A DNA stretch of 58,331 nucleotides from Oscillospiraceae bacterium (lineage in GTDB: Bacteria > Bacillota > Clostridia > Oscillospirales > CAG-272). This document shows positions 1,538 through 57,721 of this stretch, piece after piece. Within the stretch, counting starts at the first letter, position 1, and each line of letters begins with the position of its first letter. A model generated the notes under the pieces. The model saw only the letters and a program-made list of their open reading frames with translations, searched no databases and was not told where the DNA came from. Location of the stretch: contig SVSA01000002.1 of assembly GCA_015064545.1 (NCBI GenBank), forward strand, positions 1-58,331, given 5' to 3'. The translations under genes and the position numbers were made by a program.

Positions 1538-1584
1538 TACGTTGCACTTTTGTTTTTGAAACCGATTCACTTTGGGAGGTTATT
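1412..1584 (+). promoter_or_regulatory. ~170-nt structured 5' leader with two terminator-like hairpins and a possible anti-terminator pairing
   Basis: ggcgag(1432-37)/ctcgcc(1478-83) followed by T6. cccgcgcggcc(1461-71) is complementary to ggccgcgcgg(1525-34). Hairpin 1518-1547 is followed by ttttgttttt. Real SD gggagg lies before the ATG at 1585. Confidence 0.4.
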
Positions 1585-3207
1585 ATGAAATTCAAACAAT
1601 GCCTTCTCTTCGTTCTCACCCTGTGTCTGCTTCTCAGCTCTACCGGCTTCTCGCTTCCGGTTTCCCCGGCGCTTCCACCCGAAGAACCCCTTATCCCGCT
1701 TGCGCCCCCTGCGGCTTCTTTGGTCAGCTTAAACAAATCGTCCCTCTCGTTAAGCATCGGCGAAGGTGCCTTGCTTGTCGCTACCAGCGATTACAATATC
1801 AGTTGGACATCCAGTAACACAGCGGTTGCCACGGTCAATAACGGCTATGTGGTCGGACATTCCGCCGGCACCGCCACCATCACGGTCGTGATCAGCGACT
1901 TTGTCACCGAGGAAGGACTTACCAGCGATACCTGCACCGTTACGGTAGGATCTACACCGATTTTTGAAAACGGCACCTACTTCATTGAAAATATGGCAAC
2001 CGGGAAATATATTGACATTGAAGGCCCTTCGATTGCCAACGGCGCCATCATTCAGCAATGGTCGTTGAGCGGAGGAAATTCGAGAAAATGGAATCTGGTT
2101 TTGCAAAACGATGGGTATTACGCAATAAAATCGTATATGTCCCTCAAATACATGGCAATTGCTACCGACAGTACCACAGCAATCAAGCAATATTCCTCGA
2201 TCACGAACAACGCAAAATGGAGCTTCATGAAAACCGCACGCGGAAGCTATGTGCTTATCGCCAAAAGTTCTGAAAGCACCCTTAAAGCCTTAGCCACCCC
2301 CTCAACAACATCGGGAGACGGTGTCAACCTGACACAATTCGTATATTCAAATAATACATCGCTGAACGACGAGTGGGCTTTGACGCGAATGTTACCGTTA
2401 AGTGGGTATGAATTGGAGTATGGGACGGATGATTGGGAATCGTATAAAAACTATAACAACTGTTACTCATATGCAATTAACTGTAGACTTTGTGGAGATA
2501 GCTGTTTTTCCCAATTGGTGTATTACCCGCAACAACCGGGAGACTATTCGGGAAACATTTATGAAGAAACCACAGAAACCTGTTTAACCGCATCAGTTTC
2601 CGAGGATTTTGAGACTTATTTTGGTGTTGCGGGGAAGTTTTTTGAAATTGGACGGTACACGCCCTGTCCCGTCGGCGCCTATAAAGTTGCACTTGTCATT
2701 GACGCAAATCGCCCAGACTACCACTGGTATCGCCAAAATAGTAACGGACTGTGGTCCCACAAACCTGGACGCAATAGTGTCACGAATCTCGATTGTTCCG
2801 AAAGGCTCATTATTGACCCTCTGCTTGCCGACAGGAACAGCACGGATTCTGTTCCACCCGGAACCACAGATTACAGTACTTTTATTGCATACTTTGCCGT
2901 TTTCCCATGGAACTATGTCTGCGACAACATCACAAATCCTAGTTCGATACAATCTACCTCTTTATTAGCTGCGACAGAAAGCATCCAAAGTAATACAATC
3001 TCTGCTTTCTCTTTGAATAATATCTCTATTGGAATGACAAAAGAGCAGGTTTGTAAAATCCTTGACTCAGAAGGATTTTCTGCTGGTAGCGGTATATACG
3101 CATATGATTATAAATTGGCAGATGGAACAGTTGTGTTAATACAGTATCGTTACAATTCCAGTAGAAAATGTCTCGAGCTTAGCGATATTTACATTAAGGA
3201 GAATTAA
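1585..3207 (+). CDS. secreted multidomain protein: signal peptide, Big_2 Ig-like domain, ricin-B-type lectin, Cys/His peptidase-like domain, C-terminal lipoprotein-type module
   Basis: N-terminal hydrophobic signal. Big_2-like LSLSIGEGALLVATSDYNISWTSSNTAVATVNNGYVVGHSAGTATITV. QxW-like triplets (QQW, KQY, TQF) in a beta-trefoil-sized stretch. NCYSYA ... DYHWYRQNSNGLWSHKPG (Cys then His order). Terminal GMTKEQVCKILDSEGFSAGSGIYAYDYKLADGTVVLIQY. Confidence 0.75.
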   Translation: MKFKQCLLFVLTLCLLLSSTGFSLPVSPALPPEEPLIPLAPPAASLVSLNKSSLSLSIGEGALLVATSDYNISWTSSNTAVATVNNGYVVGHSAGTATITVVISDFVTEEGLTSDTCTVTVGSTPIFENGTYFIENMATGKYIDIEGPSIANGAIIQQWSLSGGNSRKWNLVLQNDGYYAIKSYMSLKYMAIATDSTTAIKQYSSITNNAKWSFMKTARGSYVLIAKSSESTLKALATPSTTSGDGVNLTQFVYSNNTSLNDEWALTRMLPLSGYELEYGTDDWESYKNYNNCYSYAINCRLCGDSCFSQLVYYPQQPGDYSGNIYEETTETCLTASVSEDFETYFGVAGKFFEIGRYTPCPVGAYKVALVIDANRPDYHWYRQNSNGLWSHKPGRNSVTNLDCSERLIIDPLLADRNSTDSVPPGTTDYSTFIAYFAVFPWNYVCDNITNPSSIQSTSLLAATESIQSNTISAFSLNNISIGMTKEQVCKILDSEGFSAGSGIYAYDYKLADGTVVLIQYRYNSSRKCLELSDIYIKEN

Positions 3208-3208
3208 G

Positions 3209-3898
3209 ATGAAGTGGATTACTTTTGTTCTTTTATTGCTATTTATATTTAACGCCTGCACCATCCCCCATGCGAGCACCCCTGCCGGATCCGATGATAC
3301 TATGGATGAAACATCGTCGGCCGAAACCACCGACACCGAAGCAGACACAACCGATCGTGTTCCTGTCACAGATGAATACGTTGTCTTACTGAAGGACTAC
3401 GAAATTTCGCTATCGGATTTGGAAAAAATTTCTGAAGGGATGCCCATTGATCGCGTCAGTGAAATTCTCGGCTCAGAAGGCTACTGTTTTACCAGCGGTA
3501 TTTACGGGTATTACTATCGGTTAAGTGACTACACAAGAATTGTCTTTAGTTATCGCCTCAACACTGAGGGGCATTATCTTGAACTCAGAGACTATGAAAT
3601 TGTACCGTTCATGGAACTGCGCTCCATTCAAAAAGGAATGACTTGGGAAGAGGCTTTGGAGATACTTAACAACCTTAGCGGCCAAGCCTATACGGTTGAA
3701 AATTCACCGGGGACATCACTACTGTTTCGGTCGAATCGTATGGACACGGACAATTGGGCGGCTTCCGTCTCGCTTCATTCGGGAAGCAATACCATCGAAA
3801 GCATTGAGCTATCTTGGAAGAACGGAGACGAAAGCGTAACTTGGCCCTTATCCGTAAGCGCGGATGGGTACTTCTCGTTTATGAGAGCAGATCAATAA
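3209..3898 (+). CDS. lipoprotein with two copies of the GMT..EV..LG module
   Basis: Lipobox-like LLFIFNAC. Modules GMPIDRVSEILGSEGYCFTSGIYGYYYRLSDYTRIVFSY and GMTWEEALEILNNL. Starts 2 nt after the upstream stop. Confidence 0.7.
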   Translation: MKWITFVLLLLFIFNACTIPHASTPAGSDDTMDETSSAETTDTEADTTDRVPVTDEYVVLLKDYEISLSDLEKISEGMPIDRVSEILGSEGYCFTSGIYGYYYRLSDYTRIVFSYRLNTEGHYLELRDYEIVPFMELRSIQKGMTWEEALEILNNLSGQAYTVENSPGTSLLFRSNRMDTDNWAASVSLHSGSNTIESIELSWKNGDESVTWPLSVSADGYFSFMRADQ

Positions 3899-4027: not shown

Positions 4028-4471
4028 ATGAAACACTATGTTCGATTTCTCATCCTTCTGCTGCTATTATCTGCCCTGTTAACCGGTTGTCACTCTTCTC
4101 TCGGAGTAGAATCTCCCGCTACGACTACCGCCAATGATATCCCCGACACCTCTTCCGAAACAGACAAAAACATTTTTGACAAAATTAAAATGCTCAACGC
4201 CTCCATGCGTGGAAGCGATGTGATCGAGCTTCTCGGGGAAGATTATGAGCTTCTATGCGATGGAAAAACGGAAAGCGTCTTGACCTACGCTCTTTTTGAC
4301 GAGTCGTATCTGTTCGTTGTCTTGCGCGGCCACCCCCAATATACTACTCCCTATTGGCAGCAAATCCCCCCTCTTGTTTCACTTGAAGAGCAGTGTATTC
4401 GTGCACTATATCTTAACGGAAAAGCGCTCCAAACCGACGAAGCCGGCAACTTCCTTCTTCCTGACGCATAA
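4028..4471 (+). CDS. small lipoprotein (module family); the 3' end lies in repeat IR2
   Basis: Lipobox LLTGC. Degenerate module SMRGSDVIELLGEDYELL. C-terminus ALQTDEAGNFLLPDA is identical to the C-terminus of the 55133-55906 product. Confidence 0.65.
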   Translation: MKHYVRFLILLLLLSALLTGCHSSLGVESPATTTANDIPDTSSETDKNIFDKIKMLNASMRGSDVIELLGEDYELLCDGKTESVLTYALFDESYLFVVLRGHPQYTTPYWQQIPPLVSLEEQCIRALYLNGKALQTDEAGNFLLPDA

Positions 4472-4574
4472 AATCCCGCGCGAAAGGAGCCCTCATGAAA
4501 CACCATATTCTCTGTCTCCTCTCCCTGCTTCTCCTGCTTTCGCTTGCGGCCTGCACAAACCCGCCCGGATCCGG
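4424..4574 (+). repeat. IR2 copy A: 151-bp segment spanning a gene 3' end, the intergenic RBS and the next gene's signal peptide; inverted partner at 55030-55180
   Basis: By manual alignment there is a single mismatch (gcgcgaaagg vs gctcgaaagg). The flanking coding sequence diverges sharply. Confidence 0.9.
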
Positions 4575-4944
4575 CACAACCGAAACAACCGATGAAGCGG
4601 TTGAGAAAATGACAGAAGACTCCGACTTTCCCTATCCCATTACCGATGCCGAACTACTCAAGCAAGTCAAGGTGGGGATGACCTACGGCGATGCCATGGC
4701 TCTCGGCCTTGATATGGGTCTTTGCTATTCGTCAGGCTCCGGTTCACCCGTCCACTATTACGGCTCTGACGGAAACAAATATTCCTTTATTCTCGAAAAC
4801 GCCGTTGTTGATATGGAATCGCTGGAATCGACATCGATTGACGATCTGCTGCACAGCGAGGCTCCCGACCTGTCGGATCCCTATAAGCGTCCTTATTCCT
4901 GGTGCACCATTATTGACATTCAGGTTACCTCCTACAAAAAATAA
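4495..4944 (+). CDS. small lipoprotein (module family); the 5' end lies in repeat IR2
   Basis: MKHHILCLLSLLLLLSLAACTNPPGSG is identical to the N-terminus of the 54462-55109 product. Module VKVGMTYGDAMALGLDMGLCYSSGSGSPVHYYGSDGNKYSF. Confidence 0.7.
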   Translation: MKHHILCLLSLLLLLSLAACTNPPGSGTTETTDEAVEKMTEDSDFPYPITDAELLKQVKVGMTYGDAMALGLDMGLCYSSGSGSPVHYYGSDGNKYSFILENAVVDMESLESTSIDDLLHSEAPDLSDPYKRPYSWCTIIDIQVTSYKK

Positions 4945-5137: not shown

Positions 5138-7045
5138 ATGGCCGGGTTACACAACAAACGCCGCGCACTCTTGCTTTTGGTGGATATCCTTTGCTTTTTT
5201 GTTTGCTTTACGGTGGCAGAGTTTATTGCTTATATCTTTAAAATTCCGTTTTCGCTGTCGCACTATCTGATTTGTGCTGCGGTCTTTTTCGTGCTGATTT
5301 TTGGCCTGCGCTTTGTGACACGCGTTTATGATCATGTGTGGCGCTATGCCAATTCCCGTACCTACTTAACGATGGTCGCCGCCGATGCGGTTGCCGGACT
5401 GACGGCTGTTGGCATTTTACAGCTTTTTGGCGTGAATCCCAGCTTTTGGTTCAGCCTTTGCCAGGCCTTTGGCGTGGCAGCCTCCTGTGACATTCTGACT
5501 TTGGTGGCGCGGTTTGTTTATCAGACCTTTTTTGGCGAAAAGCATCCGCTGAATACCGAAAATAACAAGATTGGCGTTGCGATTGTCGGCGCCGGACAGA
5601 CCGGCGTGTTTTTGGCACAGGAGCTTCTGTCGGGAGCGCACAGTCATTACCGTCCCATTTGCTTTGTCGATGTGGATAACGATAAAATCGGAAACCGTAT
5701 TCTCGGCTTGCGGGTATACAGCGAGGAAGAAATTCGCCAAAAGCTGAAGGTGTTACCGGTGCAGGAGATTTTCATTGCACTTTCGCACGTCAGTGCGGCG
5801 GAAGCGAGACGGCTTCACGATTTCTATTCGGCATCGGGCTGCAAAATCAAGCTTTACGATTTTCCGATGAATGATATGAACGAATCGGTAAAAAACGCGA
5901 AAAAGGTTATCCGTGAAATCCGCATTGAGGATCTTCTTTTCCGCGAAAGCGTGGCGGTGGCCGATGATAAGACGAGGGCCTTTTATGCCGGTCGCACCGT
6001 TATGGTGACGGGATGCGGTTCCATTGGTAGCGAGCTTTGCCGACAGATCGCGGCTTGCGATCCCATGCAGCTGATTTTGGTTGATATTTATGAGAATAAT
6101 GCGTATGACATTCAGCAAGAGCTGATCCGATTGTATGGAACGTCGCTGAATCTTGCCGTTGAAATTGCATCGGTGCGCGATCGCGTACGTATGGAGGCAA
6201 TTTTTGCCGCTTACCGTCCCGAGATTGTGTTCCATGCCGCTGCGCATAAGCATGTTCCTCTTATGGAGCATAGCTGTTGTGAGGCGATCAAGAATAATGT
6301 CTACGGTACGCTGAATACCGTAGAGCTGGCAGAAAAATATCATGTTCATAAGTTTATTCTGATTTCTACCGACAAGGCTGTCAACCCGACCAATGTGATG
6401 GGCGCTACCAAGCGTCTTTGCGAAATGATTGTCCAGAGTCGCTATGACAGTAAAACAACCTTTGCTGCCGTGCGGTTTGGTAATGTTCTGGGATCGAACG
6501 GCTCGGTGATTCCGCTGTTCCGCTCGCAAATTGCGGCGGGCGGCCCCGTTACGATAACCGATAAGCGGATTATCCGTTATTTCATGACGATTCCCGAGGC
6601 TTCGCAGTTGGTTATGCAGACCGGTGCGATGGCGCAGAGCGGCGAGCTCTTTGTGCTGAATATGGGAAATCCGGTCAAGATTCTTGACTTGGCCGAGAAC
6701 CTGATCCTTCTCTCGGGCTATAAGCCGTATGAGGAGATCGATATCAAGGAGGTTGGCCTGCGTCCGGGTGAGAAGCTTTATGAGGAGCTTCTGATTCGTA
6801 ACGAGGAAATGACGAAAACCTCCAATGACCGTATTTTTATTGAGAAGGACAAGCCTCTCAGTCGGGACGAGGTGGCCAAAAAGCTGAAAATTTTGGCAGA
6901 GGCCATGGCCGAATCGGCGGATACGCTGTGTCAGGATGCGGTTGTTACCGCGCTCAAGCAGGTAGTCCCCACCTTTATCGATCCCGAAACGGTGAATACC
7001 TCGGAGGAGACGCGGCGCGAGCTTCAAAAACAACAGAATGAGTAA
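5138..7045 (+). CDS. membrane-anchored polysaccharide biosynthesis protein, CapD/PglF/WbpM-type NDP-sugar 4,6-dehydratase
   Basis: N-terminal TM helices, two Rossmann motifs (GAGQTG, VTGCGSIGSEL), VFHAAAHKHVPLME and STDKAVNPTNVMGATKRLCE. Confidence 0.9.
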   Translation: MAGLHNKRRALLLLVDILCFFVCFTVAEFIAYIFKIPFSLSHYLICAAVFFVLIFGLRFVTRVYDHVWRYANSRTYLTMVAADAVAGLTAVGILQLFGVNPSFWFSLCQAFGVAASCDILTLVARFVYQTFFGEKHPLNTENNKIGVAIVGAGQTGVFLAQELLSGAHSHYRPICFVDVDNDKIGNRILGLRVYSEEEIRQKLKVLPVQEIFIALSHVSAAEARRLHDFYSASGCKIKLYDFPMNDMNESVKNAKKVIREIRIEDLLFRESVAVADDKTRAFYAGRTVMVTGCGSIGSELCRQIAACDPMQLILVDIYENNAYDIQQELIRLYGTSLNLAVEIASVRDRVRMEAIFAAYRPEIVFHAAAHKHVPLMEHSCCEAIKNNVYGTLNTVELAEKYHVHKFILISTDKAVNPTNVMGATKRLCEMIVQSRYDSKTTFAAVRFGNVLGSNGSVIPLFRSQIAAGGPVTITDKRIIRYFMTIPEASQLVMQTGAMAQSGELFVLNMGNPVKILDLAENLILLSGYKPYEEIDIKEVGLRPGEKLYEELLIRNEEMTKTSNDRIFIEKDKPLSRDEVAKKLKILAEAMAESADTLCQDAVVTALKQVVPTFIDPETVNTSEETRRELQKQQNE

Positions 7046-7208
7046 ACAAACGGAGAACTGCTATTGTGAAAATGGCGGTTTTCTGGTTTTGGGGTATCAT
7101 CACAATATGACATGGATTTTGTCGGATGTTCCATAGGAGAGTCTCTTACTTTTATGGTACAATACCGGTGTGAGAGCGTATCACAAAACATTTATAGGAG
7201 AAATCGTA

Positions 7209-9308
7209 ATGAAACATTATGGGCTTCTGATCATAGCGATATGTCTTGCCCTCGTTTGCGGCGGATGCCATGACGATGCGATTGAAAATGAGACCACAGA
7301 GACACCGGCGGTGAGTGATACCGAGCCCGCGATACCGGATCTTCCGGTTTCCTCGTTGGAGTCGTACCGTGTGGTCGTGGCCGAGGGGGCTTCGGATGCT
7401 GTCATGGAGGCAGCTCAGGCTCTGCGAAGCGGCTTGGCTTCTCATTTAGGCGTTTCTTCGATTGCGTTTTCGACCGACTATGAGTTCAAGGCCGGTGCGA
7501 TCGATACCACGCGGATCGATACGGAGATTTTAATCGGTATGACCAACCGCGATGAATCGCAGGCATTAGCCTCGATGTCGCTGGCACGTTTGGATTATGT
7601 GATTGACTATTCCTCTACCCGTATTGCCATTCTGGGCGGTTCGGAGGAAGCGCTTCTCAACGCGGTGCACGATTTTCTATCGCGGTATTGCACAGAGAAT
7701 GATCAGGTCATTCCGGGAGGATGGCAGTACTGCCATCGTCATGATAATGATGCCATAACGGTGGAGAGTGTACCGTTGTCGCAGTTTGTTTTGTCTGTTG
7801 GACAGGGTGTCAGCGAGAAGGCCGAAACGACATTGGTGGATACGTTATTCCGCCAATACGGTCTGGATTTGGCAAAGGTATCGGAAATCGATGCCGCCGG
7901 AGCGCGTCTTTCGCTGAGGCTTCATGAGACATGGGTACAGCAGTATGGTATTACGATTACGGCGAATACCGTTTGCCTTGAGGCATCGAGCGCACAGGCG
8001 CTGGAGGCGGCAGTCGATGCCTTCCTTACGTTGCTGACACAAAAAACGGCGCTGACCGCCGAAGACTCCGTAACCGAAAGCATGTCTGCGGTGCCGCCCT
8101 CCTATACCGAGGCTACGGTAGTCGACCGTTTGTTTGTCGAGGGTCTGACGCATAAGGATGCGCTCAGCTATGCGGTTGGCGAGGAAATCCTGTTCCGTTT
8201 CCGTGTGACCGACAGCGGAAAAACAACAGCACAGTATGCGTGCCCTCTCTTTACCTATACGGCCAGAGCCGATGATGGCCAGACATGGTCGGGACGTCTT
8301 GGCGGCGAGGGCGGCGAGATAACGCTTCGCTTTACCTTGAAGAAGCCCGGGCATATTCAGGTGTTTGTTAAGGCATGTGATGCGAACGGTAACGAAATCC
8401 CTTCGATCATCGGACTGAACGGCGGTGCCTGTGCCGGCTTTGAGGAGATTACGACCGTCAAAGAGGAGCCGGATGACTTTTGGGAATTCTGGCAGAAGCA
8501 GCTGAAGGAGCTGGAGGATGTGGCGCCGACGCTAATTGCCAAAACCGAGGTAAAAGGAAAGAATCCCTCCTTCTACTGTTACGATATTCGGATTCAAACC
8601 AACGATACGCCGGCTTCAGCCTGGCTTACCATTCCGAAAAATGCCGAGCCCGGTATGCTGAAGCTCAAAATGATCTATCAGGGGTATGGACAAAACGACC
8701 CGATTCTGGAGTTCAATCCCGGCTACATTACGGTCAGCGTGAACTCGCACAGCGTCGAGAACGGACGCGATAATGCTTATTACAGTCAAGTAGTTCCCAA
8801 CAATTTTGGCTTTCATCTTTCCGAGTATACCGATCCTTCCCGCGCCTATTTCCGCAATATGCTCCTTCGTGATGTGCAAGCCTTCCGCTTTGCCAAGACA
8901 CTGCCCGAATGGGACGGAGAGACAGCGGTGATCAGCGGCATCAGCATGGGAGGATTTCAGTCGATCGCTGTGGCGGCGCTTGAGCCGGGATGCACGAATT
9001 TGAATACGCATATTACCTGGATGTGTGATGTTGGCGGCAGAACGGATGGACGGATTGCGGGCTGGCTACCGCCATACACCGATGCGCTTCTCTATTTTGA
9101 TACCGTATATTTTGCGTCGCGTGTTACGGCGAAAACGAATCTGACGGCGGGTCTTGCTGATCCTACCTCAATGCCCTGCGGCATCACCGCGTGCTATCTT
9201 GCGATTCGCGGCGAGAAGACGCTCACCTTCCTGCAGAAGGCCACACACAGTACCGCCCTTTCGGTTTTGACGCCGGAGTATACACGAAGTGCTCCGGCGG
9301 CAGAATGA
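7209..9308 (+). CDS. lipoprotein with a C-terminal CE7-like acetyl-xylan esterase/cephalosporin-C deacetylase-type alpha/beta hydrolase domain
   Basis: Start moved to the Met preceded by aggaga. Lipobox LVCGGC. PDDFWEFWQKQLKEL, GxSxG as GISMGG, then GLADP...ATH near the C-terminus. Confidence 0.75.
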   Translation: MKHYGLLIIAICLALVCGGCHDDAIENETTETPAVSDTEPAIPDLPVSSLESYRVVVAEGASDAVMEAAQALRSGLASHLGVSSIAFSTDYEFKAGAIDTTRIDTEILIGMTNRDESQALASMSLARLDYVIDYSSTRIAILGGSEEALLNAVHDFLSRYCTENDQVIPGGWQYCHRHDNDAITVESVPLSQFVLSVGQGVSEKAETTLVDTLFRQYGLDLAKVSEIDAAGARLSLRLHETWVQQYGITITANTVCLEASSAQALEAAVDAFLTLLTQKTALTAEDSVTESMSAVPPSYTEATVVDRLFVEGLTHKDALSYAVGEEILFRFRVTDSGKTTAQYACPLFTYTARADDGQTWSGRLGGEGGEITLRFTLKKPGHIQVFVKACDANGNEIPSIIGLNGGACAGFEEITTVKEEPDDFWEFWQKQLKELEDVAPTLIAKTEVKGKNPSFYCYDIRIQTNDTPASAWLTIPKNAEPGMLKLKMIYQGYGQNDPILEFNPGYITVSVNSHSVENGRDNAYYSQVVPNNFGFHLSEYTDPSRAYFRNMLLRDVQAFRFAKTLPEWDGETAVISGISMGGFQSIAVAALEPGCTNLNTHITWMCDVGGRTDGRIAGWLPPYTDALLYFDTVYFASRVTAKTNLTAGLADPTSMPCGITACYLAIRGEKTLTFLQKATHSTALSVLTPEYTRSAPAAE

Positions 9309-9345
9309 ATCGTCAGAGAGAAGGAATGCCAAGGAGGATCATGAC

Positions 9346-10620
9346 GTGTCAAACTTATTAAACGACTTGAAGAAGGCTTCAGCAAAACCCGCATGCCCGT
9401 TCTATACCGAGGCAAAGCCCCAGGGTCGGCTCTTTGTCGAGGGAACCCCGGATAAGGATGCCCTTAGTTATCAGGTAGGAGAGGAGATGCTCTTTACCTT
9501 CCGCCTGACCGACAGCAAGCAGCTGTCCTCGGTATATGCCTGCCCGACCTTTTCCTGGAGCGCGAAGGCCGATGACGGACAAACCTGGTCGGGTGTGGTC
9601 TCGGGTGAGGAAGGGGTGGCAGCCCTTCGCTTTACCCTTACAAAACCGGGATATCTCTATGTTTCGGTCAATGCACAGGACGACAAGGGAGCGAATATCG
9701 CTTCGGTGACCGGCTTTGTCGGCGGCGCCTGTGTCGGCTTTGAACAGATCCAAGCGGTCAAGGAAAAGCCGGATGACTTTTGTGCCTTCTGGCAGACTCA
9801 GCTGGCGGCCCTCAACGGTGTTGCTCCGATACTGATCTCCAAGGTGGAGGTCAAGAGCGATAACGCCGACTTCTATTGCTACGATATCCGTGTGAAGAGT
9901 CACGATGCGGCGGCACCGGTTTCGGCAGTTATGACCTATCCGAAGAATGCCGAGCGCGGATCGCTGAAGCTCAAAATGTTCTATCACGGCTATGGCAATT
10001 ATACACCGATTGTACAGTACAATGACGGATATATCACCGTCAGCGTCAATTCGCACAGCATTGAAAACGGGCGCGAGGATGCTTATTACCAGCAGCTGCA
10101 GCAAACTATCCTGAAGAACTTCGGCTTTGCGGATGGCGATTATGTGGATCCTGCCAAGGCTTACTTCCGTGACATGATCCTACGTGATGTCCAAGCCTTC
10201 CGCTTTGCCAAAACGCTTCCGGAATGGAACGGCGAGGATGTTCTGATCGCGGGAGGCAGTATGGGAGCCTTCCAGTCGATTGCGGTGGCGGCTCTTGAGC
10301 CGGGATGTACGCTGTTGAATCTTGCCATCGTTTGGATGTGCGATGTCGGCGGCCGTACCGAAGGACGTATTGCCGGATGGCTCCCGGCCTATTCGGACAA
10401 TCTTCTGTATTTTGACAGTACGAGCTTTGCTAAGTATATCACCTGCAAGACAGGCATTACGGCAGGGTTGGCCGATCCGATTGCCGTTCCCTGCGGTATT
10501 ACCGCGCTGTATCATAACCTTGCTTGTGAAAAAACGATTAGCTTTATTCAGAGTGCGACCCACAATCTGGAGGCGTATGTGGTAAAGACAGTGTATCATC
10601 GAAGCTTCGATAAGATATAA
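9346..10620 (+). CDS. CE7-like esterase, tandem paralogue of the C-terminal two-thirds of the upstream gene
   Basis: Collinear similarity from LFVEGTPDKDALSYQVGEEMLF to the end, with GGSMGA. Start placed at an in-frame GTG 7 nt after aaggagga; the ATG at 9289 is the alternative. Confidence 0.7.
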   Translation: MSNLLNDLKKASAKPACPFYTEAKPQGRLFVEGTPDKDALSYQVGEEMLFTFRLTDSKQLSSVYACPTFSWSAKADDGQTWSGVVSGEEGVAALRFTLTKPGYLYVSVNAQDDKGANIASVTGFVGGACVGFEQIQAVKEKPDDFCAFWQTQLAALNGVAPILISKVEVKSDNADFYCYDIRVKSHDAAAPVSAVMTYPKNAERGSLKLKMFYHGYGNYTPIVQYNDGYITVSVNSHSIENGREDAYYQQLQQTILKNFGFADGDYVDPAKAYFRDMILRDVQAFRFAKTLPEWNGEDVLIAGGSMGAFQSIAVAALEPGCTLLNLAIVWMCDVGGRTEGRIAGWLPAYSDNLLYFDSTSFAKYITCKTGITAGLADPIAVPCGITALYHNLACEKTISFIQSATHNLEAYVVKTVYHRSFDKI

Positions 10621-12421: not shown

Positions 12422-13477
12422 ATGAAAGGCTTTGCCATGATTGCCCCCAACCAGGTCGGTTGGATCGAAAAAGAAAGACCCACCTGCGGACCGTTGGACG
12501 CGATTGTCCGTCCCCTTGCAGTTGCCCCCTGCACCTCAGATATTCACACCGTTTACGAAGGCGCACTCGGCGACCGCTTCAATATGATCCTCGGCCATGA
12601 GGGTGTTGGTGAAGTGGTTGAGGTTGGTAGCCTCGTCAAGGATTTCAAGCCCGGCGACCGTGTTCTCGTTCCCGCGATTACGCCCGACTGGGGTGCTGTC
12701 GAATCGCAGGCAGGCTACTCGGTTCACTCGGGCGGTATGCTGGCCGGTTGGAAGTTCTCCAACTTCAAGGACGGCGTATTCGGTGAATTTTTCCATGTAA
12801 ACGAAGCCGATGCTAACCTGGCTCTGCTTCCCGAGGGCATGGACCTGGCCTCGGCCGTTATGCTGGCCGACATGATTCCTACCGGCTTCCACGGTGTTGA
12901 GCTGGCTGACGTTCAGTTCGGTGATAAGGTTTGCGTCATCGGTATCGGCCCTGTCGGTCTGATGGCCGTAGCCGGCGCTGCCCTGCGCGGTGCTTCGGAT
13001 CTGTATGCCGTCGGTTCGCGTAAGATCTGTGCCGATGTGGCAAGAGAGTACGGTGCCACCGAGATCATTGACTATCACAACGGTGACATTGCCGAGCAGG
13101 TGCTTGCTTTGACCGGCGGTAAGGGTGTTGACAAGGTTGTCATCGCCGGCGGCACCTCGGAGGAAACCTTTGCGCAGGCCGTTAAGATGGTGAAGGCCGG
13201 TGGCCGCATCGGTAACGTCAACTACCTCGGTAGCGGCGACGTGATCATTCCCCGTGTGGAATGGGGCTGTGGCATGGGCCACAAGACCATTGCCGGCGGT
13301 CTGATGTACGGCGGCCGTCTCCGTATGGAGAAGCTCGCTTCGCTGATCACCTCGGGCCGTCTTGACCCCTCCAAGATGATCACCCATACCTTCCACGGCT
13401 TCGAGTACATCGAAGAGGCGCTGATGCTGATGAAGAATAAGCCCCGCGATTTGATCAAGCCGGTTGTTATTCTTTAA
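12422..13477 (+). CDS. zinc-dependent NADP-type secondary (isopropanol-type) alcohol dehydrogenase, TbADH/CbADH-like
   Basis: Near-collinear match from memory to Thermoanaerobacter brockii ADH: MKGFAM...VRPLAVAPCTSDIHTV, GHE.VGEVVEVGS.VKDFKPGDRV.VPAITPDW, GMLAGWKFSN.KDGVFGEFFHVN, KDLIKPVVIL. Confidence 0.9.
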   Translation: MKGFAMIAPNQVGWIEKERPTCGPLDAIVRPLAVAPCTSDIHTVYEGALGDRFNMILGHEGVGEVVEVGSLVKDFKPGDRVLVPAITPDWGAVESQAGYSVHSGGMLAGWKFSNFKDGVFGEFFHVNEADANLALLPEGMDLASAVMLADMIPTGFHGVELADVQFGDKVCVIGIGPVGLMAVAGAALRGASDLYAVGSRKICADVAREYGATEIIDYHNGDIAEQVLALTGGKGVDKVVIAGGTSEETFAQAVKMVKAGGRIGNVNYLGSGDVIIPRVEWGCGMGHKTIAGGLMYGGRLRMEKLASLITSGRLDPSKMITHTFHGFEYIEEALMLMKNKPRDLIKPVVIL

Positions 13478-13496: not shown

Positions 13497-13534
13497 AAAA
13501 ACCGCCTGCCAAAACGGCAGGCGGTTTTTGTTTG
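13497..13534. terminator. bidirectional terminator between convergent genes
   Basis: aaaa-accgcctgcc/ggcaggcggt-ttttt. Confidence 0.8.
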
Positions 13535-13570: not shown

Positions 13571-15190
13571 TTAATGAATATAAATACCGTCGACGACATA
13601 GCCTGATACATCGAAGTCCATTCTGTAAGCGATGATGACGGTACTGCCATCATTGCAGTAATACAGATAAGACGATGAAGTGCTGGCGGAAGGATTTGCG
13701 ATTGGCCCCGGCGCTTGTAAAATATCAAAGACCTCCGACATTGTCATGCCGGGCTTGATTTGATCGAACAGTTGAGGGTCAAAAAAACGCTCGGGATCGG
13801 TCAGTTCTCGTCCGGGAAGTGCAAAATATCCGTGGCTGTCTATCGCAAGATACTGCATCTTTGTCGTATTCGTTGTGGTCAGATAAATGTGGGTTATGAC
13901 AGGGTTCTCGGTTGGCTCGCGCGTAGGGCCGAAGACAATGTTAACCGTGGTTTTCCCAATAAGGCATTTTGAAGAACCAACGTAAGTGTCGACAGTGGAT
14001 TGAGTGGAGGCATCAAATGCAGGTAGCTTCTGAAGGGTGAAGGAATATTCATGCTTCAGATATGTCTTTGCCTCAGACCAAGACATGCCGTAACGAAGCT
14101 TTTCTAAATAGGTTAAGTCGTCCTTCGATTCCGTAATATCCGGGCTGGTTTCGGGCACAACGTAATAGCCTTTGGTGTCGATTTCCAACGGTTCATTGTT
14201 GAGCATCACATAGGCTACGAGGGAAAGGGATTCTTTATGGGAGGAGTCGGACGTTATGCCGGGAATATACAGGATTTGAATGGTCAGGATTCGACCGTCA
14301 GTCGTGGGGTAAACATAGATGTCAGGTTCGGTTATGACTCCCCGGGAGAAGCTCAGACCCTTTGAACCGAGAAGATCAATAACCTCACCCCAAAGCATGT
14401 CGATGGAAATCTGTTCAATAACCGAGGGATCGACAGCCGGTGCCGGCTTCTCGCGCGAAATGGTGCAAGGCTCGTTAATACCTGAATAACCATCGAGTAT
14501 GACGGTGCTTCCGTCATCACCCCAAAATATCGGCACATAACGACCGCTTAACAAAGAGTATCCGCCACCTCCGAGAATGGTGAGCATTTGTTTCATGGTC
14601 ATGTTTTCCTCGAGCATCTCGAACAAACGATGATCGACAAACTGAATGGCAAAAGGCTCACTGAGTTGAATGATCGGGGCATCCGGATCGAATGGGGCAG
14701 TCGTGACGATGCCATCTTCGTTGGGCGGTGTAACCACCGGGGGTTGTGTCTCTTTGGTGATCAAGTTCTTTTCGCAGACCGTTCCGGCATAGGTTGTGTT
14801 CTTGGGGCAGAATATGATGCAATAATGATTTCCGTTATTGCCGTGATACAGCCACCGATTACCATTGTCAAACTCATACCCTTGGCTTCCGATGACCTCG
14901 GCGACCTCTTCCTTGGTCATGCCTGTTTTTACTTTGTCAAAATCCTCATTCGTAATGAAGAAAAAGCCCGATTCTTCTGAGGGTGTTGTGGTTTCGGGTA
15001 CGCCGGTATCGCCCGGTAAGGGTTGCCTCGGCAACAGGGCGGGGGCCACGATCATGGCAAGTAAGAACGTTCCAATCGCAATGGCCATAGCGCCGCCCGA
15101 AAAGAGGGAATGAATTTTGTTTTTTCGTTCGCGATAGCGATTGCGACGGGCAAAAAGCTCCTCGCGGATCGCAGAAACCGATTGTTTCAT
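13571..15190 (-). CDS. single-pass membrane protein, putative anti-sigma factor; ectodomain of ~5 lipoprotein-type modules
   Basis: 4-nt ATGA overlap with the upstream ECF sigma gene. ~33-aa basic cytoplasmic N-terminus, one TM (AMAIAIGTFLLAMIVAPALL). Modules GMTKEEVAEVIGSQGYEF, NMTMKQMLTILGGGGYSLLSG, DMLWGEVIDLLGSKG, GMSWSEAKTYL, GMTMSEVFDILQAPG. Confidence 0.6.
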   Translation of the reverse strand: MKQSVSAIREELFARRNRYRERKNKIHSLFSGGAMAIAIGTFLLAMIVAPALLPRQPLPGDTGVPETTTPSEESGFFFITNEDFDKVKTGMTKEEVAEVIGSQGYEFDNGNRWLYHGNNGNHYCIIFCPKNTTYAGTVCEKNLITKETQPPVVTPPNEDGIVTTAPFDPDAPIIQLSEPFAIQFVDHRLFEMLEENMTMKQMLTILGGGGYSLLSGRYVPIFWGDDGSTVILDGYSGINEPCTISREKPAPAVDPSVIEQISIDMLWGEVIDLLGSKGLSFSRGVITEPDIYVYPTTDGRILTIQILYIPGITSDSSHKESLSLVAYVMLNNEPLEIDTKGYYVVPETSPDITESKDDLTYLEKLRYGMSWSEAKTYLKHEYSFTLQKLPAFDASTQSTVDTYVGSSKCLIGKTTVNIVFGPTREPTENPVITHIYLTTTNTTKMQYLAIDSHGYFALPGRELTDPERFFDPQLFDQIKPGMTMSEVFDILQAPGPIANPSASTSSSYLYYCNDGSTVIIAYRMDFDVSGYVVDGIYIH

Positions 15191-15729
15191 CGAAAATCCT
15201 CCTTCGATAGTTCACGTTTCAGAATGGTTTTGGCGCGGTATAACAGATTGTCGATTTGCTTGCGGCTCTTATGTAGGGCGTGTGCCGCCTCCTCATAGGA
15301 CATCTCTTCAAAATAGATCAGATGTACGGCGGCACGCATATCGCTCGGCAGATCGTTCAGCGCCCGATGCAGCTCACGGGTTTCCTCGCGGCGGAGAAGC
15401 TCCTCGTCCGGCGAGGAGGTTTGTGCTGCTCGCTCCGCCTCGCTCAGCTCATCGGGTGCCAAACGGCGGGAACGCTTGAGCGCGTTCAGCGCCTTGTTGC
15501 GCCCGATGGCGAAGAGATAGGTTTTGAGCTTGGTTTTGAAGTGATACCGCTTGGGATGAATCAAAAGCTCGAGCAACGTATCCATGGTCAGATCCTCGGC
15601 TGTTGATCGATCCTTCACATAGCGGCAAAGAAAAAAGGTCAATGAGTCGTAATAGGCGGCAATTACGCCGTCAAAGGCTGTTTCGTCACCGTCAAGATAA
15701 CGGCGATAGCTGTCTTCCCCCGGTCCCAT
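15187..15729 (-). CDS. ECF-type RNA polymerase sigma-70 family factor
   Basis: 180 aa with region 2 (DLTMDTLLELLIHPKRY, TYLFAIGRNKALNALKR) and region 4 HTH (MSYEEAAHALHKSRKQIDNLLYRAK). Confidence 0.9.
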   Translation of the reverse strand: MGPGEDSYRRYLDGDETAFDGVIAAYYDSLTFFLCRYVKDRSTAEDLTMDTLLELLIHPKRYHFKTKLKTYLFAIGRNKALNALKRSRRLAPDELSEAERAAQTSSPDEELLRREETRELHRALNDLPSDMRAAVHLIYFEEMSYEEAAHALHKSRKQIDNLLYRAKTILKRELSKEDFR

Positions 15730-15811
15730 ATCGGCTCCTTTCGCAGATGTCAGAAGAATTCTTCACCTATCATACAACTGAGAAGGCAAAAATCCTTACG
15801 GTTTCAAAAAA

Positions 15812-15840
15812 ATTATAGCAGATTTCCCGCGCGTTGGCAA
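15812..15840 (-). promoter_or_regulatory. sigma-A-type promoter of the ECF sigma operon
   Basis: On the minus strand: TTGCCA, 17 nt, TATAAT. Confidence 0.55.
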
Positions 15841-16714: not shown

Positions 16715-17341
16715 ATGACCGGAAAAGAACGCTGTCGCATTTTAAAGGATATCCGTAAACAGATTGCGAAAGAAAACGAGATTGCCGATATCACGGCAGA
16801 ATGTACGCACAAGGGCGATTGTCTCGGTACCTGTCCCCGTTGTGAAAGCGAGGTGCGCTATTTGGAGCGTGAGCTGGAGAAGCGTCGCTTACTTGGTAAA
16901 ACCGTAACGGTAGCCGGTCTTGCGATTGCTGTGACCGCGGTATCGAGCGGCTGTGTCAAAAGCGGTATCACCGAAACGCAGGGCGATATGATTGGCCCCG
17001 GGAATTCGCCGTCTTTCACGGATACGACTGCGCCGCTTTCGAGTGAGGTCGCGGAGCTCGGCGAGATTTTGATGGGCGATATTGCCTATCTGCCGCCGCC
17101 TACGATCGAAGAGCTCAAAACCGTGCTTGCCGATCGGTTGAACGAGTCGCTTCTTCACTGTTATCGCGACGATATCCGCACGGCCTATCGGAACGAGGTG
17201 ATCGCATGGCATGAAGATTACGATGTCTATCGCTGGAACGATGAGGGGGACACTTTGGTGATTGCGTACGATGATGATGGCTTTTGTGTCTCGGCCGGGC
17301 TTGCCGTTGCAGAAGCGGACGATTCTGCGGTTACCTCGTGA
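16715..17341 (+). CDS. membrane protein with an N-terminal Cys-rich zinc-ribbon-like cytoplasmic domain
   Basis: ECTHKGDCLGTCPRCE (H-x3-C-x3-C-x2-C), one TM (VTVAGLAIAVTAVSSGC) and an extracytoplasmic C-terminal domain. No family assigned confidently. Confidence 0.6.
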   Translation: MTGKERCRILKDIRKQIAKENEIADITAECTHKGDCLGTCPRCESEVRYLERELEKRRLLGKTVTVAGLAIAVTAVSSGCVKSGITETQGDMIGPGNSPSFTDTTAPLSSEVAELGEILMGDIAYLPPPTIEELKTVLADRLNESLLHCYRDDIRTAYRNEVIAWHEDYDVYRWNDEGDTLVIAYDDDGFCVSAGLAVAEADDSAVTS

Positions 17342-52163: not shown

Positions 52164-54206
52164 TTACCAGAAGAAGGGGTAGGGGCGGTCGATAATCTTA
52201 TGGGTAAACGCCATCAGGTCGGGGGAAATGTCGAACCACTTAGCGCTCGCGTTTTCTGTGAGATATTCGCCGTTTTCGTAGCGATTGCCCGAATCCCAGG
52301 TGGGATCCATGATGACCCATCGGTTCTCCTCGGCGAGATACGCTTCAATATGAACGTGGTTGCTCTCGGTTGTTTGCGCGTTATTCTCATCAATCGTGCC
52401 GGAGCCGGTAGAATAGGTGCTGACGCGGATACAGGGAATTCCCTGCGCTTGAATCAGATTGCCAAGGAGTGTGGCATAGCCATCGCAAACCGAGCGTCGC
52501 GTTTCGTAAACCTCGAGGGCAGAGAGCGAGAGCGAATCGCTTCGGCCATAGAGATAGTCATAATCGTAGTAGATATTTTCCGCTACCCACTTATTCAACA
52601 GGTAGAGCTTTCGATAGGTATCGGTTTCATCGCCCACGATCTCGTTGGACAGGTTACGGATGGTATCCGAAATCGTAAGGGACAGGCATTCGGAGGGATC
52701 GACCCATTGACGCTGGAGCGACAGGTTATGAGACAACACCGGGGACAGCCGGAACACGTATCCGTCCTCGGAGGGCATGACCGAAATTTCATGCCAGATA
52801 TAACTCCAGAAGTTGGATTCGCCGTTAACCTGCGTGAAAATCGACACGTAGGTTTCTTCGGTTACCCGGGACAGAGAGAGCTCGGTGTAGAAGAACTCGC
52901 CGCTCGTTACCGACACGAATTCATCCTCGAGATTCGAGGGGATTTCGCATCGGAGCCAGAGCTTGGTCAGGCCGTCTCGCTGAATTCGGCCTTGAATGGT
53001 CAGCGTATCGTCCGTAATGCGGAATTCCACGCAGTTGTTCGGATTGTTGGAGGTGATGATGCGGGTGGGGGAGCCATACAGTGAGGGATCGAAGTTGAGG
53101 ACTCCGATATTCTTGTCGTAGGTTCCCTTACAAACATCACAGGTATAGGTCAGGATGCCTGCCACGGTGGGCGTGGGCGCCACCTTGACGGTGTAGGAGG
53201 AATAGTGATGTCCCGTCGCGGGAAGAATCTCTACCGTACGGCTGGAGCAACGGGAGCAAGCGGTTGTTTTGCTGCCGTTCGTTTCGCAGGTGGCCTTGAC
53301 GGTGGTGGTTTGATAATGGTGTCCCTTGGCGGGGATGGTTTCGGTTTTGGAGAAGCTGCAACGGGAGCAGGTGGTTACCGTTTTTCCTGCGGTGGTGCAG
53401 GTAGCCTCGGTGGTTGTGGTTTTGGTATCGTGTCCCTTGGCGGGGATGGTTTCGGTTTGGGAGAAGCTGCAACGGGAGCAGGTGGTTACTGTTTTTCCTG
53501 TCGCGGTACAGGTAGCCTCGGTGGTTGTGGTTTTGGTATCGTGTCCCTTGGCGGGGATGGTTTCGGTTTGGGAGAAGCTGCAACGGGAGCAGGTGGTTAC
53601 CGTTTTTCCTGTCGTGGTACAGGTAGCCTCGGTGGTTGTGGTTTTGGTATCGTGTCCCTTGGCGGGGATGGTTTCGGTTTGGGAGAAGCTGCAACGGGAG
53701 CAGGTGGTTACCGTTTTTCCTGTCGCGGTACAGGTAGCCTCGGTGGTTGTGGTTTTGGTATCGTGTCCCTTGGCAGGGATGATTTCGGTTTTGGAGAAGC
53801 TGCAACGGGAGCAGGTGGTTACCGTTTTTCCTGCGGTGGTGCAGGTGGCTTCGGTGGTTGTGGTTTTATATTCGTGGGGACACGAGGTGTCAGCCGGTTC
53901 GGTGGTTTCGGGAGGTGTGGTATCCTCGGTGGTGATATTCTCGGTGGTTTCGGGAGGAATGGTATCCTCGGTGGTGATATCCTCGGCGGTCTCGGGAGGT
54001 GTGGTGTCCTCGGTGGTGATATCCTCGGCGGTCCCGGAAGGAATGGTATCCTTCTCTGAGGTGTCCGCCACGGTGGTTCCGGAGGCGGTAATGTCCTTGG
54101 TGGTGATATCCGCAGTCGTTTCGGGGACGGTTTCGGGCTGTAACCCACAGGCTGCAAGCGAGAGCAGGAGAAGCAGGGAGAGGAGATAAAGAAGATAGCG
54201 TTTCAT
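52164..54206 (-). CDS. lipoprotein with acidic Thr-rich repeats, seven Cys-rich ~37-aa repeats and a C-terminal transglutaminase-core (Cys-His-Asp) domain
   Basis: Start at MKRYLLYLLSLLLLLSLAAC (lipobox). Repeats TKTTTTEATCT..GKTVTTCSRCSFS.TE.IPAKGHD. Core RRSVCDGYATLLGNLIQAQGIPCIRV ... HVHIEAY ... WVIMDPTWD. Confidence 0.8.
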   Translation of the reverse strand: MKRYLLYLLSLLLLLSLAACGLQPETVPETTADITTKDITASGTTVADTSEKDTIPSGTAEDITTEDTTPPETAEDITTEDTIPPETTENITTEDTTPPETTEPADTSCPHEYKTTTTEATCTTAGKTVTTCSRCSFSKTEIIPAKGHDTKTTTTEATCTATGKTVTTCSRCSFSQTETIPAKGHDTKTTTTEATCTTTGKTVTTCSRCSFSQTETIPAKGHDTKTTTTEATCTATGKTVTTCSRCSFSQTETIPAKGHDTKTTTTEATCTTAGKTVTTCSRCSFSKTETIPAKGHHYQTTTVKATCETNGSKTTACSRCSSRTVEILPATGHHYSSYTVKVAPTPTVAGILTYTCDVCKGTYDKNIGVLNFDPSLYGSPTRIITSNNPNNCVEFRITDDTLTIQGRIQRDGLTKLWLRCEIPSNLEDEFVSVTSGEFFYTELSLSRVTEETYVSIFTQVNGESNFWSYIWHEISVMPSEDGYVFRLSPVLSHNLSLQRQWVDPSECLSLTISDTIRNLSNEIVGDETDTYRKLYLLNKWVAENIYYDYDYLYGRSDSLSLSALEVYETRRSVCDGYATLLGNLIQAQGIPCIRVSTYSTGSGTIDENNAQTTESNHVHIEAYLAEENRWVIMDPTWDSGNRYENGEYLTENASAKWFDISPDLMAFTHKIIDRPYPFFW
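53319..53874 (-). repeat. five tandem near-identical 111-bp coding repeats
   Basis: Unit starts (gtgtcccttgg) at 53319, 53430, 53541, 53652 and 53763. Two degenerate units continue to ~53170. Confidence 0.9.
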
Positions 54207-54348
54207 GCAGATGTCTACCTTTCTGTTGGATGTGATCGCTCGCATCAGCGATGGTGCGGGGCGCACGCCAAGTGTACGGCCGCTTAGCGAATGCCGCTGG
54301 GATCCCTTCCGCATCCGAACGGGGCGTTCCCATCGGTTTGACAAGAAT

Positions 54349-54378
54349 AGTATAGCACACATTCCCGGTGGATGGCAA
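54349..54378 (-). promoter_or_regulatory. sigma-A-type promoter of the transglutaminase-like lipoprotein gene
   Basis: On the minus strand: cTCTTGCCATCC, 18 nt, TATACT, then a ~135-nt leader. Confidence 0.5.
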
Positions 54379-54405
54379 GAGCATTTGCAAAAAAACAAAA
54401 GATTT

Positions 54406-55109: not shown

Positions 55110-55180
55110 GAGGGCTCCTTTCGAGCGGGATTTTATGCGTCAGGAAGAAGGAAGTTGCCGGCTTCGTCGGTTTGGAGCGC
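55030..55180 (-). repeat. IR2 copy B (inverted partner of 4424-4574)
   Basis: See IR2 copy A. Confidence 0.9.
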
Positions 55181-55906: not shown

Positions 55907-55957
55907 GTTAGTTCTCACTTTCCGATGGTATGGAATGGATGGCAAGGGAGGAGGTGT

Positions 55958-56136
55958 CCGCCGCGCGGCCGTTGCACTCATCCGTTCACAAAGGTTCGGT
56001 CAGGAAAAAACGGCGAGACACAGGCCGCGCGGGAAAATGCTCGCAGGACATGGGACTCGCCTCCTTTTTGGATTCTCTGTATCATCAGTATAGCATATAG
56101 CGTTATCTCTGTCAATCGTTTTTTCAATATCACCAA
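55958..56136 (-). repeat. IR1 copy B: promoter+leader segment (inverted partner of 1357-1537)
   Basis: See IR1 copy A. Confidence 0.9.
56087..56115 (-). promoter_or_regulatory. sigma-A-type promoter of the right-hand lipoprotein operon
   Basis: On the minus strand: TTGACA, 17 nt, TATACT (same as the promoter at 1378-1406). Confidence 0.6.
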
Positions 56137-56166
56137 CAAACTTCACGGTTTCACCGCCGCACACTC

Positions 56167-57707: not shown

Positions 57708-57721
57708 GGGACGCGTTTCCC

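Follow-up and report, generated by a model that had tools for sequence, protein, structure and literature searches.

The question raised by this locus is what the gene of an ECF (extracytoplasmic function) sigma factor is doing in front of a 539-residue membrane protein that resembles no known anti-sigma factor. Pairs of an ECF sigma factor and an anti-sigma factor are among the principal means that bacteria have of sensing their surroundings, and among the ECF pairs of gut Clostridia we know of almost none with a known signal. The two genes lie at positions 13,571 to 15,729 of a 58,331-nucleotide stretch of an Oscillospiraceae genome (contig SVSA01000002.1), called the window below. They probably form a bicistronic, self-activating ECF sigma/membrane anti-sigma pair, one of a large unnamed family of such pairs in gut Clostridia.

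The sigma factor operon

15187..15729, minus strand: ECF sigma factor gene, 180 aa (Sigma70_r2 and Sigma70_r4_2 matches, TIGR02937)
13571..15190, minus strand: candidate anti-sigma factor gene, 539 aa, single-pass, N-in/C-out (overlaps the sigma gene by ATGA; AlphaFold2, AF2)
13501..13518, minus strand: terminator-like hairpin and T-run after the anti-sigma stop codon (sequence)

The 180-residue protein matches Sigma70_r2 (PF04542, E 3.4e-11) and Sigma70_r4_2 (PF08281, E 6.9e-12), and scores 91 bits against a cut-off of 42.9 with TIGR02937, which is a generic model of the ECF superfamily only. It is made of regions 2 and 4, with no region 3, as is characteristic of the ECF sigma factors (group 4). 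It falls below the cut-off of every NCBIfam equivalog, those of SigV, SigW, SigX, SigM and SigY included; the best of these, TIGR02985, gives 102 bits against 126, and the SigV model 56.7 bits against 190. The stop codon of the sigma reading frame overlaps the start codon of the 539-residue protein in the sequence ATGA, and a Shine-Dalgarno sequence, AAGGAGG, lies just 5' of it. The operon is bicistronic, since the latter gene is followed by the terminator-like hairpin (13518-13501) and the next gene beyond it (12422..13477, plus strand) is convergent. A first, sequence-only reading of this DNA had described the overlapping sigma factor and single-pass membrane protein in these terms, and the open reading frames, Pfam and TIGR02937 confirm it.

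A family of sigma/partner pairs with a common N-terminus

Homologues of the sigma factor number 544 at E<=1e-10, and all come from metagenome-assembled genomes of gut Clostridia (Oscillospiraceae, Acutalibacteraceae, Lachnospiraceae and 'Eubacteriales'). A scan of a genome collection, with one genome per species, found 508 stretches with a relative of the sigma gene, and 80 loci were fetched for comparison. In all 80, as well as in the loci L081 and L082, the sigma gene is followed by that of a single-pass protein, and in most cases the two overlap by 4 bp. The 80 partners have a cytoplasmic tail of 26-34 residues, the first transmembrane (TM) helix starting at residue 26-34. They share the N-terminal motif M-[RK]-x-x-[ED]-E-x-K-A-E-[IVL]-[FY]-R-[RK], which is followed by a run of 3-6 Lys/Arg and by a TM helix with a conserved Cys and with a Pro at its outer face (60 of the 80 members have a Pro after the helix).

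Beyond residue ~55, the 80 partner proteins are unrelated. They range from 160 to 1514 residues and many form singleton clusters. Ten carry a Serpin domain (L002, L004, L005, L007, L013, L015, L016, L033, L034 and L048; best E 2e-86), there are single cases of a BspA-type leucine-rich repeat (LRR), a cohesin and a Big_14 domain, and about 65 have an ectodomain without any Pfam domain. The Serpin ectodomains suggest a sensor that acts as a protease bait. Because the tail motif is conserved while the ectodomains are unrelated, the short helix is likely to be the anti-sigma element and the ectodomain a swappable sensor. Some of the metagenome-assembled genomes hold two pairs with different ectodomains (L004/L063, L014/L027, L007/L047), a situation that calls for cognate specificity between each sigma factor and its partner.

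NCBIfam has no model naming any of the 80 partners, Pfam has none of the partner anchor, and DUF4179 is found in none of the 80 relatives at E<=0.001. A literature search returned no paper on serpin-type (or BLIP-type) ECF anti-sigma factors, and none relevant to Rsi24C. The family-level anchor therefore seems to be undescribed.

Partners that are little more than this anchor also exist. A search of 5.8 billion proteins with the N-terminal profile returned 17 short proteins; its word index passed only 438 candidates, and it gives no census of ectodomain types. The 58-95-residue proteins P0272-P0287 have little beyond the family N-terminal helix and TM segment, and are encoded downstream of an ECF sigma gene. 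One of them, P0273 (L082, 3001-3207), is a stand-alone helix-plus-TM protein, the next open reading frame starting at its stop codon. It may represent an anti-sigma factor that is minimal by nature, or else one that has been split or frameshifted.

The sequence-only reading had called the 539-residue protein an atypical anti-sigma candidate, with a short basic cytoplasmic part devoid of the H-x3-C-x2-C motif. It does remain a good candidate, the helix, the TM segment and the coupling being kept in all 80 loci and in a syntenic relative. A short tail is usual throughout the family, and 'atypical' therefore applies to the whole large family and not to this locus in particular.

An ectodomain of BamE/OsmE/BLIP-fold modules

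The ectodomain consists of five alpha-alpha-beta3 modules of the BamE/OsmE/BLIP fold, four robust and one weak, carried on flexible Pro/Thr-rich linkers (H, helix; E, strand):

14741..14965, minus strand: module 1, aa 76-150, BamE/BLIP-like (Pfam BamE best stretch 78-105; module profile; AF2 H81-85, H93-100, E112-117, E122-127, E137-144)
14441..14650, minus strand: module 2, aa 181-250 (18.9 bits as a non-seed match, decoy maximum 6.4; AF2 helix-helix-strand)
14150..14443, minus strand: module 3, aa 250-347, long subtype ending DTKGYYVVP (18.5 bits as a non-seed match; end motif; AF2)
13805..14128, minus strand: module 4, aa 355-462, divergent long subtype ending DSHGYFALP (AF2 H356-364, H371-374, four strands; long-module profile)
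13574..13795, minus strand: module 5, aa 466-539, preceded by a PERFF linker common to a 215-aa lipoprotein (40% identity over 73 aa)

The modules were scored with a profile seeded with five modules of the window and iterated once, against shuffled decoys (decoy maximum 4.6-6.4 bits). This general profile recognizes residues ~76-150, 181-250, 250-347 and 466-539 as four robust modules. Module 4 is the weakest, with 5.6 bits. A profile of the long subtype, whose modules close with the recurring motif D-x-x-G-[YFN]-[YF]-x-[LV]-P, covers it over its full length with 8.8 bits (decoy maximum 5.7), and in the AF2 model it shows the helix-helix-strand pattern of the other modules. In an orthologue that is 97% identical, five stretches are matched by the module profile in a search of 1.84 billion representative proteins. 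Residues 451-523, that is the linker and module 5, are 40% identical to residues 137-206 of the 215-aa lipoprotein encoded elsewhere in the window (E 7e-11). Pairwise identity among the five modules is only 15-24%, and modules 1, 3 and 5 are each closest to module 2 of that lipoprotein; the ectodomain is thus not a recent internal duplication.

The module belongs to the BamE/SmpA_OmlA - BLIP fold superfamily, with a unit of ~70 residues made of two helices and an antiparallel three-strand sheet. On the repeat, Pfam BamE/SmpA_OmlA (PF04355) scores 41.8 bits against a cut-off of 23.2, OsmE and DUF3862 match more weakly, and BLIP (PF07467) is present in the precomputed database annotation of the homologues P0121 and P0122. 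Module 5 modelled alone by AF2, with 11 modules of the window as alignment, reaches a predicted local distance difference test (pLDDT) value of 90.7. In a Foldseek search with this model, the top 31 PDB matches are all BamE, OsmE, BLIP or TpgA (probability 1.0, TM-score on query 0.5-0.68, identity 18-21%); the best E-value does not go beyond 2.8e-3, owing to the small size of the domain. The full-length model has no PDB match at E<=0.001, which is attributable to its low confidence, and BLIP and BamE appear there only as high-probability local matches. A sequence search of the PDB with the 539-residue protein gave no matches.

Thus, the five lipoprotein-type modules of the sequence-only reading, and the linker shared with the 215-aa lipoprotein, stand, module 4 being weak. 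So does its estimate of ~14 modules in seven proteins of the window, for which we count 11 robust and 2-3 weak modules in the 539-residue protein and six exported neighbours. That the module is a known fold was the point it had missed.

The profile search of the 1.84 billion proteins returned 854 proteins at E<=1e-3, typically of 150-600 residues with at least two units, approximately half of them with a lipobox. Among the best 150 of these, the N-terminus of the 539-residue type occurs only in that protein's own orthologues, and about half are plain lipoproteins. The 539-residue protein itself has only three homologues among 5.8 billion proteins, one 97% identical, one 78% identical with two extra modules, and one, P0123, 49% identical with a different C-terminal half. 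Their lengths (538, 716 and 733 residues) indicate that modules are gained and lost quickly. The module is found in none of the 80 partner proteins. The BLIP/BamE-repeat sensor is a rare, member-specific feature, and it is the sigma/partner pairing itself that is common in gut Clostridia.

The fold leaves room for another view of the ectodomain, in which the 539-residue protein is an anti-sigma factor whose BamE-like modules bind the membrane or cell wall, or are mere spacers, the sigma factor being released by general envelope stress. BamE and OsmE are indeed envelope lipoproteins rather than receptors, TpgA-type relatives contact envelope components, and so many of the best-matching module proteins are plain lipoproteins. 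We nevertheless regard this as unlikely: the highly diverse ectodomains of the family, often specific protein-binding folds (serpin, LRR, cohesin), fit ligand-specific sensors better, and the rapid gain and loss of modules among the orthologues is what is expected of a surface-exposed recognition domain.

The cytoplasmic tail as a candidate anti-sigma element

15095..15190, minus strand: N-terminal helix on the cytoplasmic side, aa 1-32, proposed to bind sigma, with the core E11-L12-F13-A14-R15-R16 and a basic run after it (family motif, profile, AF2)
15032..15094, minus strand: TM helix, aa ~33-53, ending V-A-P-A-L-L-P, AXA-like at its outer end (AF2, orthologue alignment)

The protein starts with MKQSVSAIREELFARRNRYRERKNKIHSLFSGG, followed by a hydrophobic segment that ends in IVAPALLPRQ, a sequence invariant across four orthologues. 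Residues 1-32 include nine Lys/Arg, one His and no Cys, and therefore no H-x3-C-x2-C motif; neither Pfam at E<=1 nor NCBIfam recognizes an anti-sigma family anywhere in the protein. AF2 predicts a helix at residues 5-31, in a region of low confidence (block pLDDT 46-65), and then the TM helix at 34-52. The N-terminus is better kept than the molecule as a whole: identity to P0123 is ~79% over residues 1-33, 71% over residues 1-56 and 45% over the whole protein in this alignment (49% in the protein search). A family profile of the N-terminus and TM segment finds the 539-residue protein as its best match in the whole window, in register, with 16.6 bits against a decoy maximum of 7.4. A second match of 9.9 bits, at 25812-26006, was dismissed, as only the TM-like part aligns and there is no sigma context.

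Several observations weigh against the reading of this tail as an anti-sigma element. A profile of the cytoplasmic 28 residues alone is inseparable from decoys (2.9 bits against up to 10.3), because this part is too short and too biased in composition, and only the tail together with the TM segment is diagnostic. The likeness of the tail to the family comes down to a core of 5-6 residues and a basic composition. The single ~26-residue helix that is predicted has a low hydrophobic moment and is, to our knowledge, shorter than any structurally defined anti-sigma domain; the full-length AF2 model, at pLDDT 58, is of low confidence. In the 80 pairs, distances between tails track distances between sigma factors better (r=0.70) than those between the adjacent TM segments do (r=0.51), which is suggestive only, since such a correlation can come from shared ancestry alone. 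Finally, the self-promoter is the only site of its kind found within the 58 kb.

These weaknesses would suit a protein that is an output of the sigma factor and not its regulator, that is, a co-transcribed surface protein with an uncleaved signal-anchor whose basic N-terminus merely sets the positive-inside topology, the sigma factor being controlled transcriptionally or by another factor. It would need no anti-sigma domain, and none is recognized; its cytoplasmic segment need not stand out from decoys; and the ectodomains of the family do resemble surface proteins of the adhesin or inhibitor type (serpin, BspA-LRR, cohesin). A bare topology signal, however, would not keep E-[ILV]-[FY]-R-[RK] at a constant spacing from the first residue across 80 loci with unrelated ectodomains. 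The invariable order of sigma gene and then partner gene, with a 4-bp overlap, is the hallmark of sigma/anti-sigma pairs, and there are partners of 58-95 residues that comprise hardly more than tail and TM segment. This explanation consequently appears improbable to us, and the anti-sigma reading of the 539-residue protein, as judged from sequence conservation, is plausible and rather likely.

Promoters and the reach of the sigma factor

15762..15799, minus strand: ECF-type promoter, GTAAGGATTTT-N16-TTGTATGATAGGTGAA, presumably auto-regulated (matrix from 53 other loci)
15812..15840, minus strand: site resembling a sigma-70-type promoter, upstream of the ECF one, TTGCCA-17-TGnTATAAT (agrees with the consensus at 11 of 12 positions, extended -10; consensus match only)

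L081 and most of the 80 loci carry the motif ATAAGGAWTTT-N16/17-TTGTATAATAAGTGAA ~40-80 nt before the start codon of the sigma gene; one sub-clade has the variant GAGTGTTTT...CGAATAAT. Its core form, TAAGGAWTTT-N16/17-TTGTATAAT, has a single copy in the window, and this lies upstream of the sigma gene. When trained on 53 loci, with the window and L081 left out, a matrix gives 34.6 bits at 15762-15799 on the minus strand, compared with at most 14.8 bits over 100 Markov shuffles of the window sequence and 7.9 bits for the next site in the window. In the related loci, 742 kb in all, the motif is hardly found anywhere but upstream of sigma genes. The only strong extra copy in these 742 kb is at L032 7683-7720 on the minus strand (34.9 bits). 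Behind it lie two genes for exported proteins (6601..7650 and 6360..6659, minus strand), convergent to the sigma operon, which may be a first hint of a family regulon member.

The other module carriers of the window are organized in two lipoprotein operons:

1585..3207: 540-aa exported protein, 1 module (module profile)
3209..3898, plus strand: 229-aa lipoprotein, 2 modules (module profile)
4028..4471: 147-aa lipoprotein, 1 weak module, 10.7 bits (long-subtype profile)
4495..4944: 149-aa lipoprotein, 1 module (module profile)
54462..55109, minus strand: 215-aa lipoprotein, 2 modules, the second of which, with the linker, is the closest relative of anti-sigma module 5 (alignment, profile)
55133..55981: 282-aa lipoprotein, 1 module and 1 not significant (module profile)

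The two operons are partial inverted duplicates ~54 kb apart, with different gene bodies. A region that is 93-97% identical (1347-1537 and 55958-56146, inverted) opens both with the same promoter and leader, and a gene junction (the end of one lipoprotein and the signal peptide of the next) is 97% identical between 4416-4574 and 55030-55188. Recent duplication, gene conversion or an exchange of cassettes between surface lipoproteins could account for this pattern. The promoter in the duplicated region, TTGACA-17-TGnTATACT, is of near-consensus sigma-A type. The leader extends ~180 nt after the promoter in both operons (1378-1584, plus strand, and 56115-55982, minus strand). A terminator-like hairpin at 1531-1545, just before the ribosome-binding site, is a possible attenuator; the folding of the leader is barely better than that of shuffles (z = -2.05), and it has no Rfam match.

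The sequence-only reading implied that both lipoprotein operons could belong to the ECF regulon. This is not upheld: their promoters lack the ECF-family motif, the best scores there being -2.4 and -11.1 bits. A scan with the -35/-10 core only has its second-best site in the window at 3069-3098 on the plus strand (11.3 bits), which precedes the gene of the 229-aa lipoprotein by ~110 nt. This site was rejected as a target, as four sites in the window reach at least 10 bits, its -10 half scores -2.0, and it lies inside the coding sequence of a conserved module motif. On promoter evidence, the ECF sigma factor would thus regulate its own operon and the lipoprotein operons would not be direct targets, with the caveat that the promoters of targets may depart further from the motif than the self-promoter does. 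The lipoproteins are paralogous surface proteins with the same module family and with sigma-A-type promoters of their own; they are not demonstrated ECF targets.

It is accordingly very doubtful that the sigma factor controls both operons and that free lipoproteins and the sensor of the anti-sigma factor contend for a single ligand, for instance the exported Cys-peptidase-fold neighbours: the common module family, with lipoprotein module 2 as the closest relative of anti-sigma modules 1, 3 and 5, the transglutaminase-core protein in one operon and the core site before the 229-aa gene speak for it, but that site is not significant, the two operons share one sigma-A-type promoter, and they lie 9 kb and 39 kb from the sigma operon, outside the synteny conserved in L081.

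The transglutaminase-core domain (Pfam) is at the C-terminus of a 744-aa lipoprotein-like protein (52164..54398, minus strand) that sits in one of the two operons. This protein also carries 5-6 tandem 111-nt units (53136-53987) that encode a 37-residue Cys-rich repeat, C-x-T-x-G-K-T-V-T-T-C-S-R-C-S, and 42-nt Thr/Pro-rich repeats. For the central region of the 540-aa protein there is no PDB sequence match, and its 'Cys-peptidase fold' label is an unconfirmed candidate.

A model for the operon

A self-activating sigma/anti-sigma pair could work as follows. The two genes, translationally coupled as observed, lie behind sigma-A-like and family-specific ECF-type promoters. The 32-residue basic N-terminal helix, judging from its conservation, would bind the sigma factor and sequester it at the membrane, as a minimal anti-sigma domain functionally like those of class II (CnrY) or the short tail of RsiV. 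The five-module ectodomain, which is the exchangeable part in the family, would face the outside; binding between proteins is a known role of the BamE/OsmE/BLIP fold. On the model of RsiV and RsiP, in which site 1 is cut by signal peptidase before RasP acts (PMC4183432, PMC6066255, PMC8844934), binding of an extracellular ligand, probably a protein, might expose the juxtamembrane VAPA↓LLP to a site-1 protease, perhaps signal peptidase. The invariance of VAPA↓LLP at the outer end of the TM helix would fit a signal-peptidase-type site. Site-2 cleavage in the membrane and cytoplasmic degradation would then free the sigma factor, which would boost its own operon and a regulon outside the window.

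A broader proposal, which we put forward only tentatively, is that the ~500-member family uses a new minimal anti-sigma helix (~26 residues, continuous with a signal-peptide-like TM segment) and decoy or inhibitor folds as extracellular baits for secreted enzymes (for instance proteases) of hosts, phages or competitors, capture or cleavage of the bait destroying the anti-sigma factor. The baits would be serpins in approximately one member out of eight, BLIP/BamE-like repeats here, and LRR or cohesin folds elsewhere, and the free lipoproteins would be the matching soluble or surface inhibitors. Inhibitor-like exchangeable ectodomains (serpin, BLIP-like) suggest testable ligands, namely secreted enzymes.

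The very short anchor and the specific promoter motif can be used to find further family members, their sensors and their regulons in metagenomes, and both the profile and the promoter searches are reusable. If it is a true anti-sigma element, the anchor would be the shortest described, and useful for synthetic circuits. The window by itself is of more modest interest, as one rare ectodomain variant; the lead of higher interest is at the family level, a minimal anchor with bait ectodomains.

Neighbouring genes and repeats

The locus L081, in which P0123 is encoded, is syntenic: it has an acetyl-xylan-esterase pair, ADH, the anti-sigma candidate, sigma, HAD, a Zn-ribbon protein and a radical-SAM gene. 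In the window, tandem paralogous acetyl-xylan-esterase-like genes (7170..9308 and 9289..10620, plus strand) contain DNA repeats that are 73-75% identical; both are kept upstream of the sigma locus in L081. The gene at 16715..17341 (plus strand) encodes a 208-aa protein whose N-terminus bears a zinc-ribbon-like motif, C-x3-C...C-P-x-C, and which has a single TM helix and a small ectodomain; the module profile does not match this protein. The gene overlaps a radical-SAM activase gene, and the same pair adjoins the sigma operon in L081.

Hairpin-rich 228-nt tandem repeats (three copies, 89-98% identical) at 57708-58331 are cut off by the window's end. Near 50.6 kb (50597-50636) there is a GC-rich hairpin related to them, and together they may represent a REP- or MITE-like intergenic element. 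Neither the repeats nor this hairpin match a tRNA or an Rfam family, and an Rfam scan of the whole window gave no matches.

Comparison with known systems

Class I anti-sigma domains (ASDI) are helical and ~100 residues long on average, domains of <50 residues having been excluded from the class (PMC7406223). The 539-residue protein lies outside class I and its zinc-binding (ZAS) members, with a cytoplasmic part of 32 residues, one helix, no Cys, and no zf-HC2 or RskA match at E<=1. In length, its tail is like that of the class II factors CnrY (partner of CnrH) and NepR, whose cytoplasmic anti-sigma element is very short and lacks a zinc motif, and in CnrY is likewise followed by a single TM helix. 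CnrY, however, makes contact with sigma regions 4 and 2 through two helices, whereas one continuous helix of ~26 residues is predicted here, at low confidence. The two have no sequence similarity, CnrY has a small periplasmic part and not a 480-residue modular ectodomain, and it belongs to Proteobacteria and not to Clostridia.

The SigI/RsgI system of cellulolytic clostridia is alike in concept, with several paralogous pairs per genome, a conserved N-terminal cytoplasmic part and TM segment, and interchangeable extracellular sensing modules (PMC7826278). The sigma factor studied here differs in being a canonical two-domain ECF protein, its partner has no RsgI_N, and the ectodomains are protein-binding folds and not carbohydrate-binding modules.

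The modules have the helix-helix-three-strand unit of BamE/OsmE/BLIP (SmpA_OmlA, PF04355; PF07467; DUF3862), a unit that is also duplicated in tandem in BLIP. Here, in contrast, five units stand on one chain with an anti-sigma-type N-terminal anchor, in a Gram-positive host and with no beta-lactamase or BAM context. Functional BLIP uses the concave sheet of its two tandem units to inhibit class A beta-lactamases, and the similarity to it is at the level of the fold only.

The SigV/RsiV pair (ECF30; Bacillus, Clostridioides) is a Firmicutes ECF pair with a single-pass anti-sigma factor, a short N-terminal cytoplasmic part that binds sigma and a signal-peptide-like TM segment, a likeness that extends to the AXA-like VAPA↓L at the outer TM end of the 539-residue protein. 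The latter differs in having neither DUF4179 (PF13786) at E<=1 nor the RsiV ectodomain; its sigma factor is not a SigV orthologue, and the promoter motif is different. The RsiV ectodomain is a receptor for a protein, lysozyme, whose binding is followed by signal peptidase cleavage, and the operon is auto-regulated (PMC4183432, PMC5014341, PMC6066255). By analogy, it is SigV/RsiV that the present locus would most resemble in the way it works.

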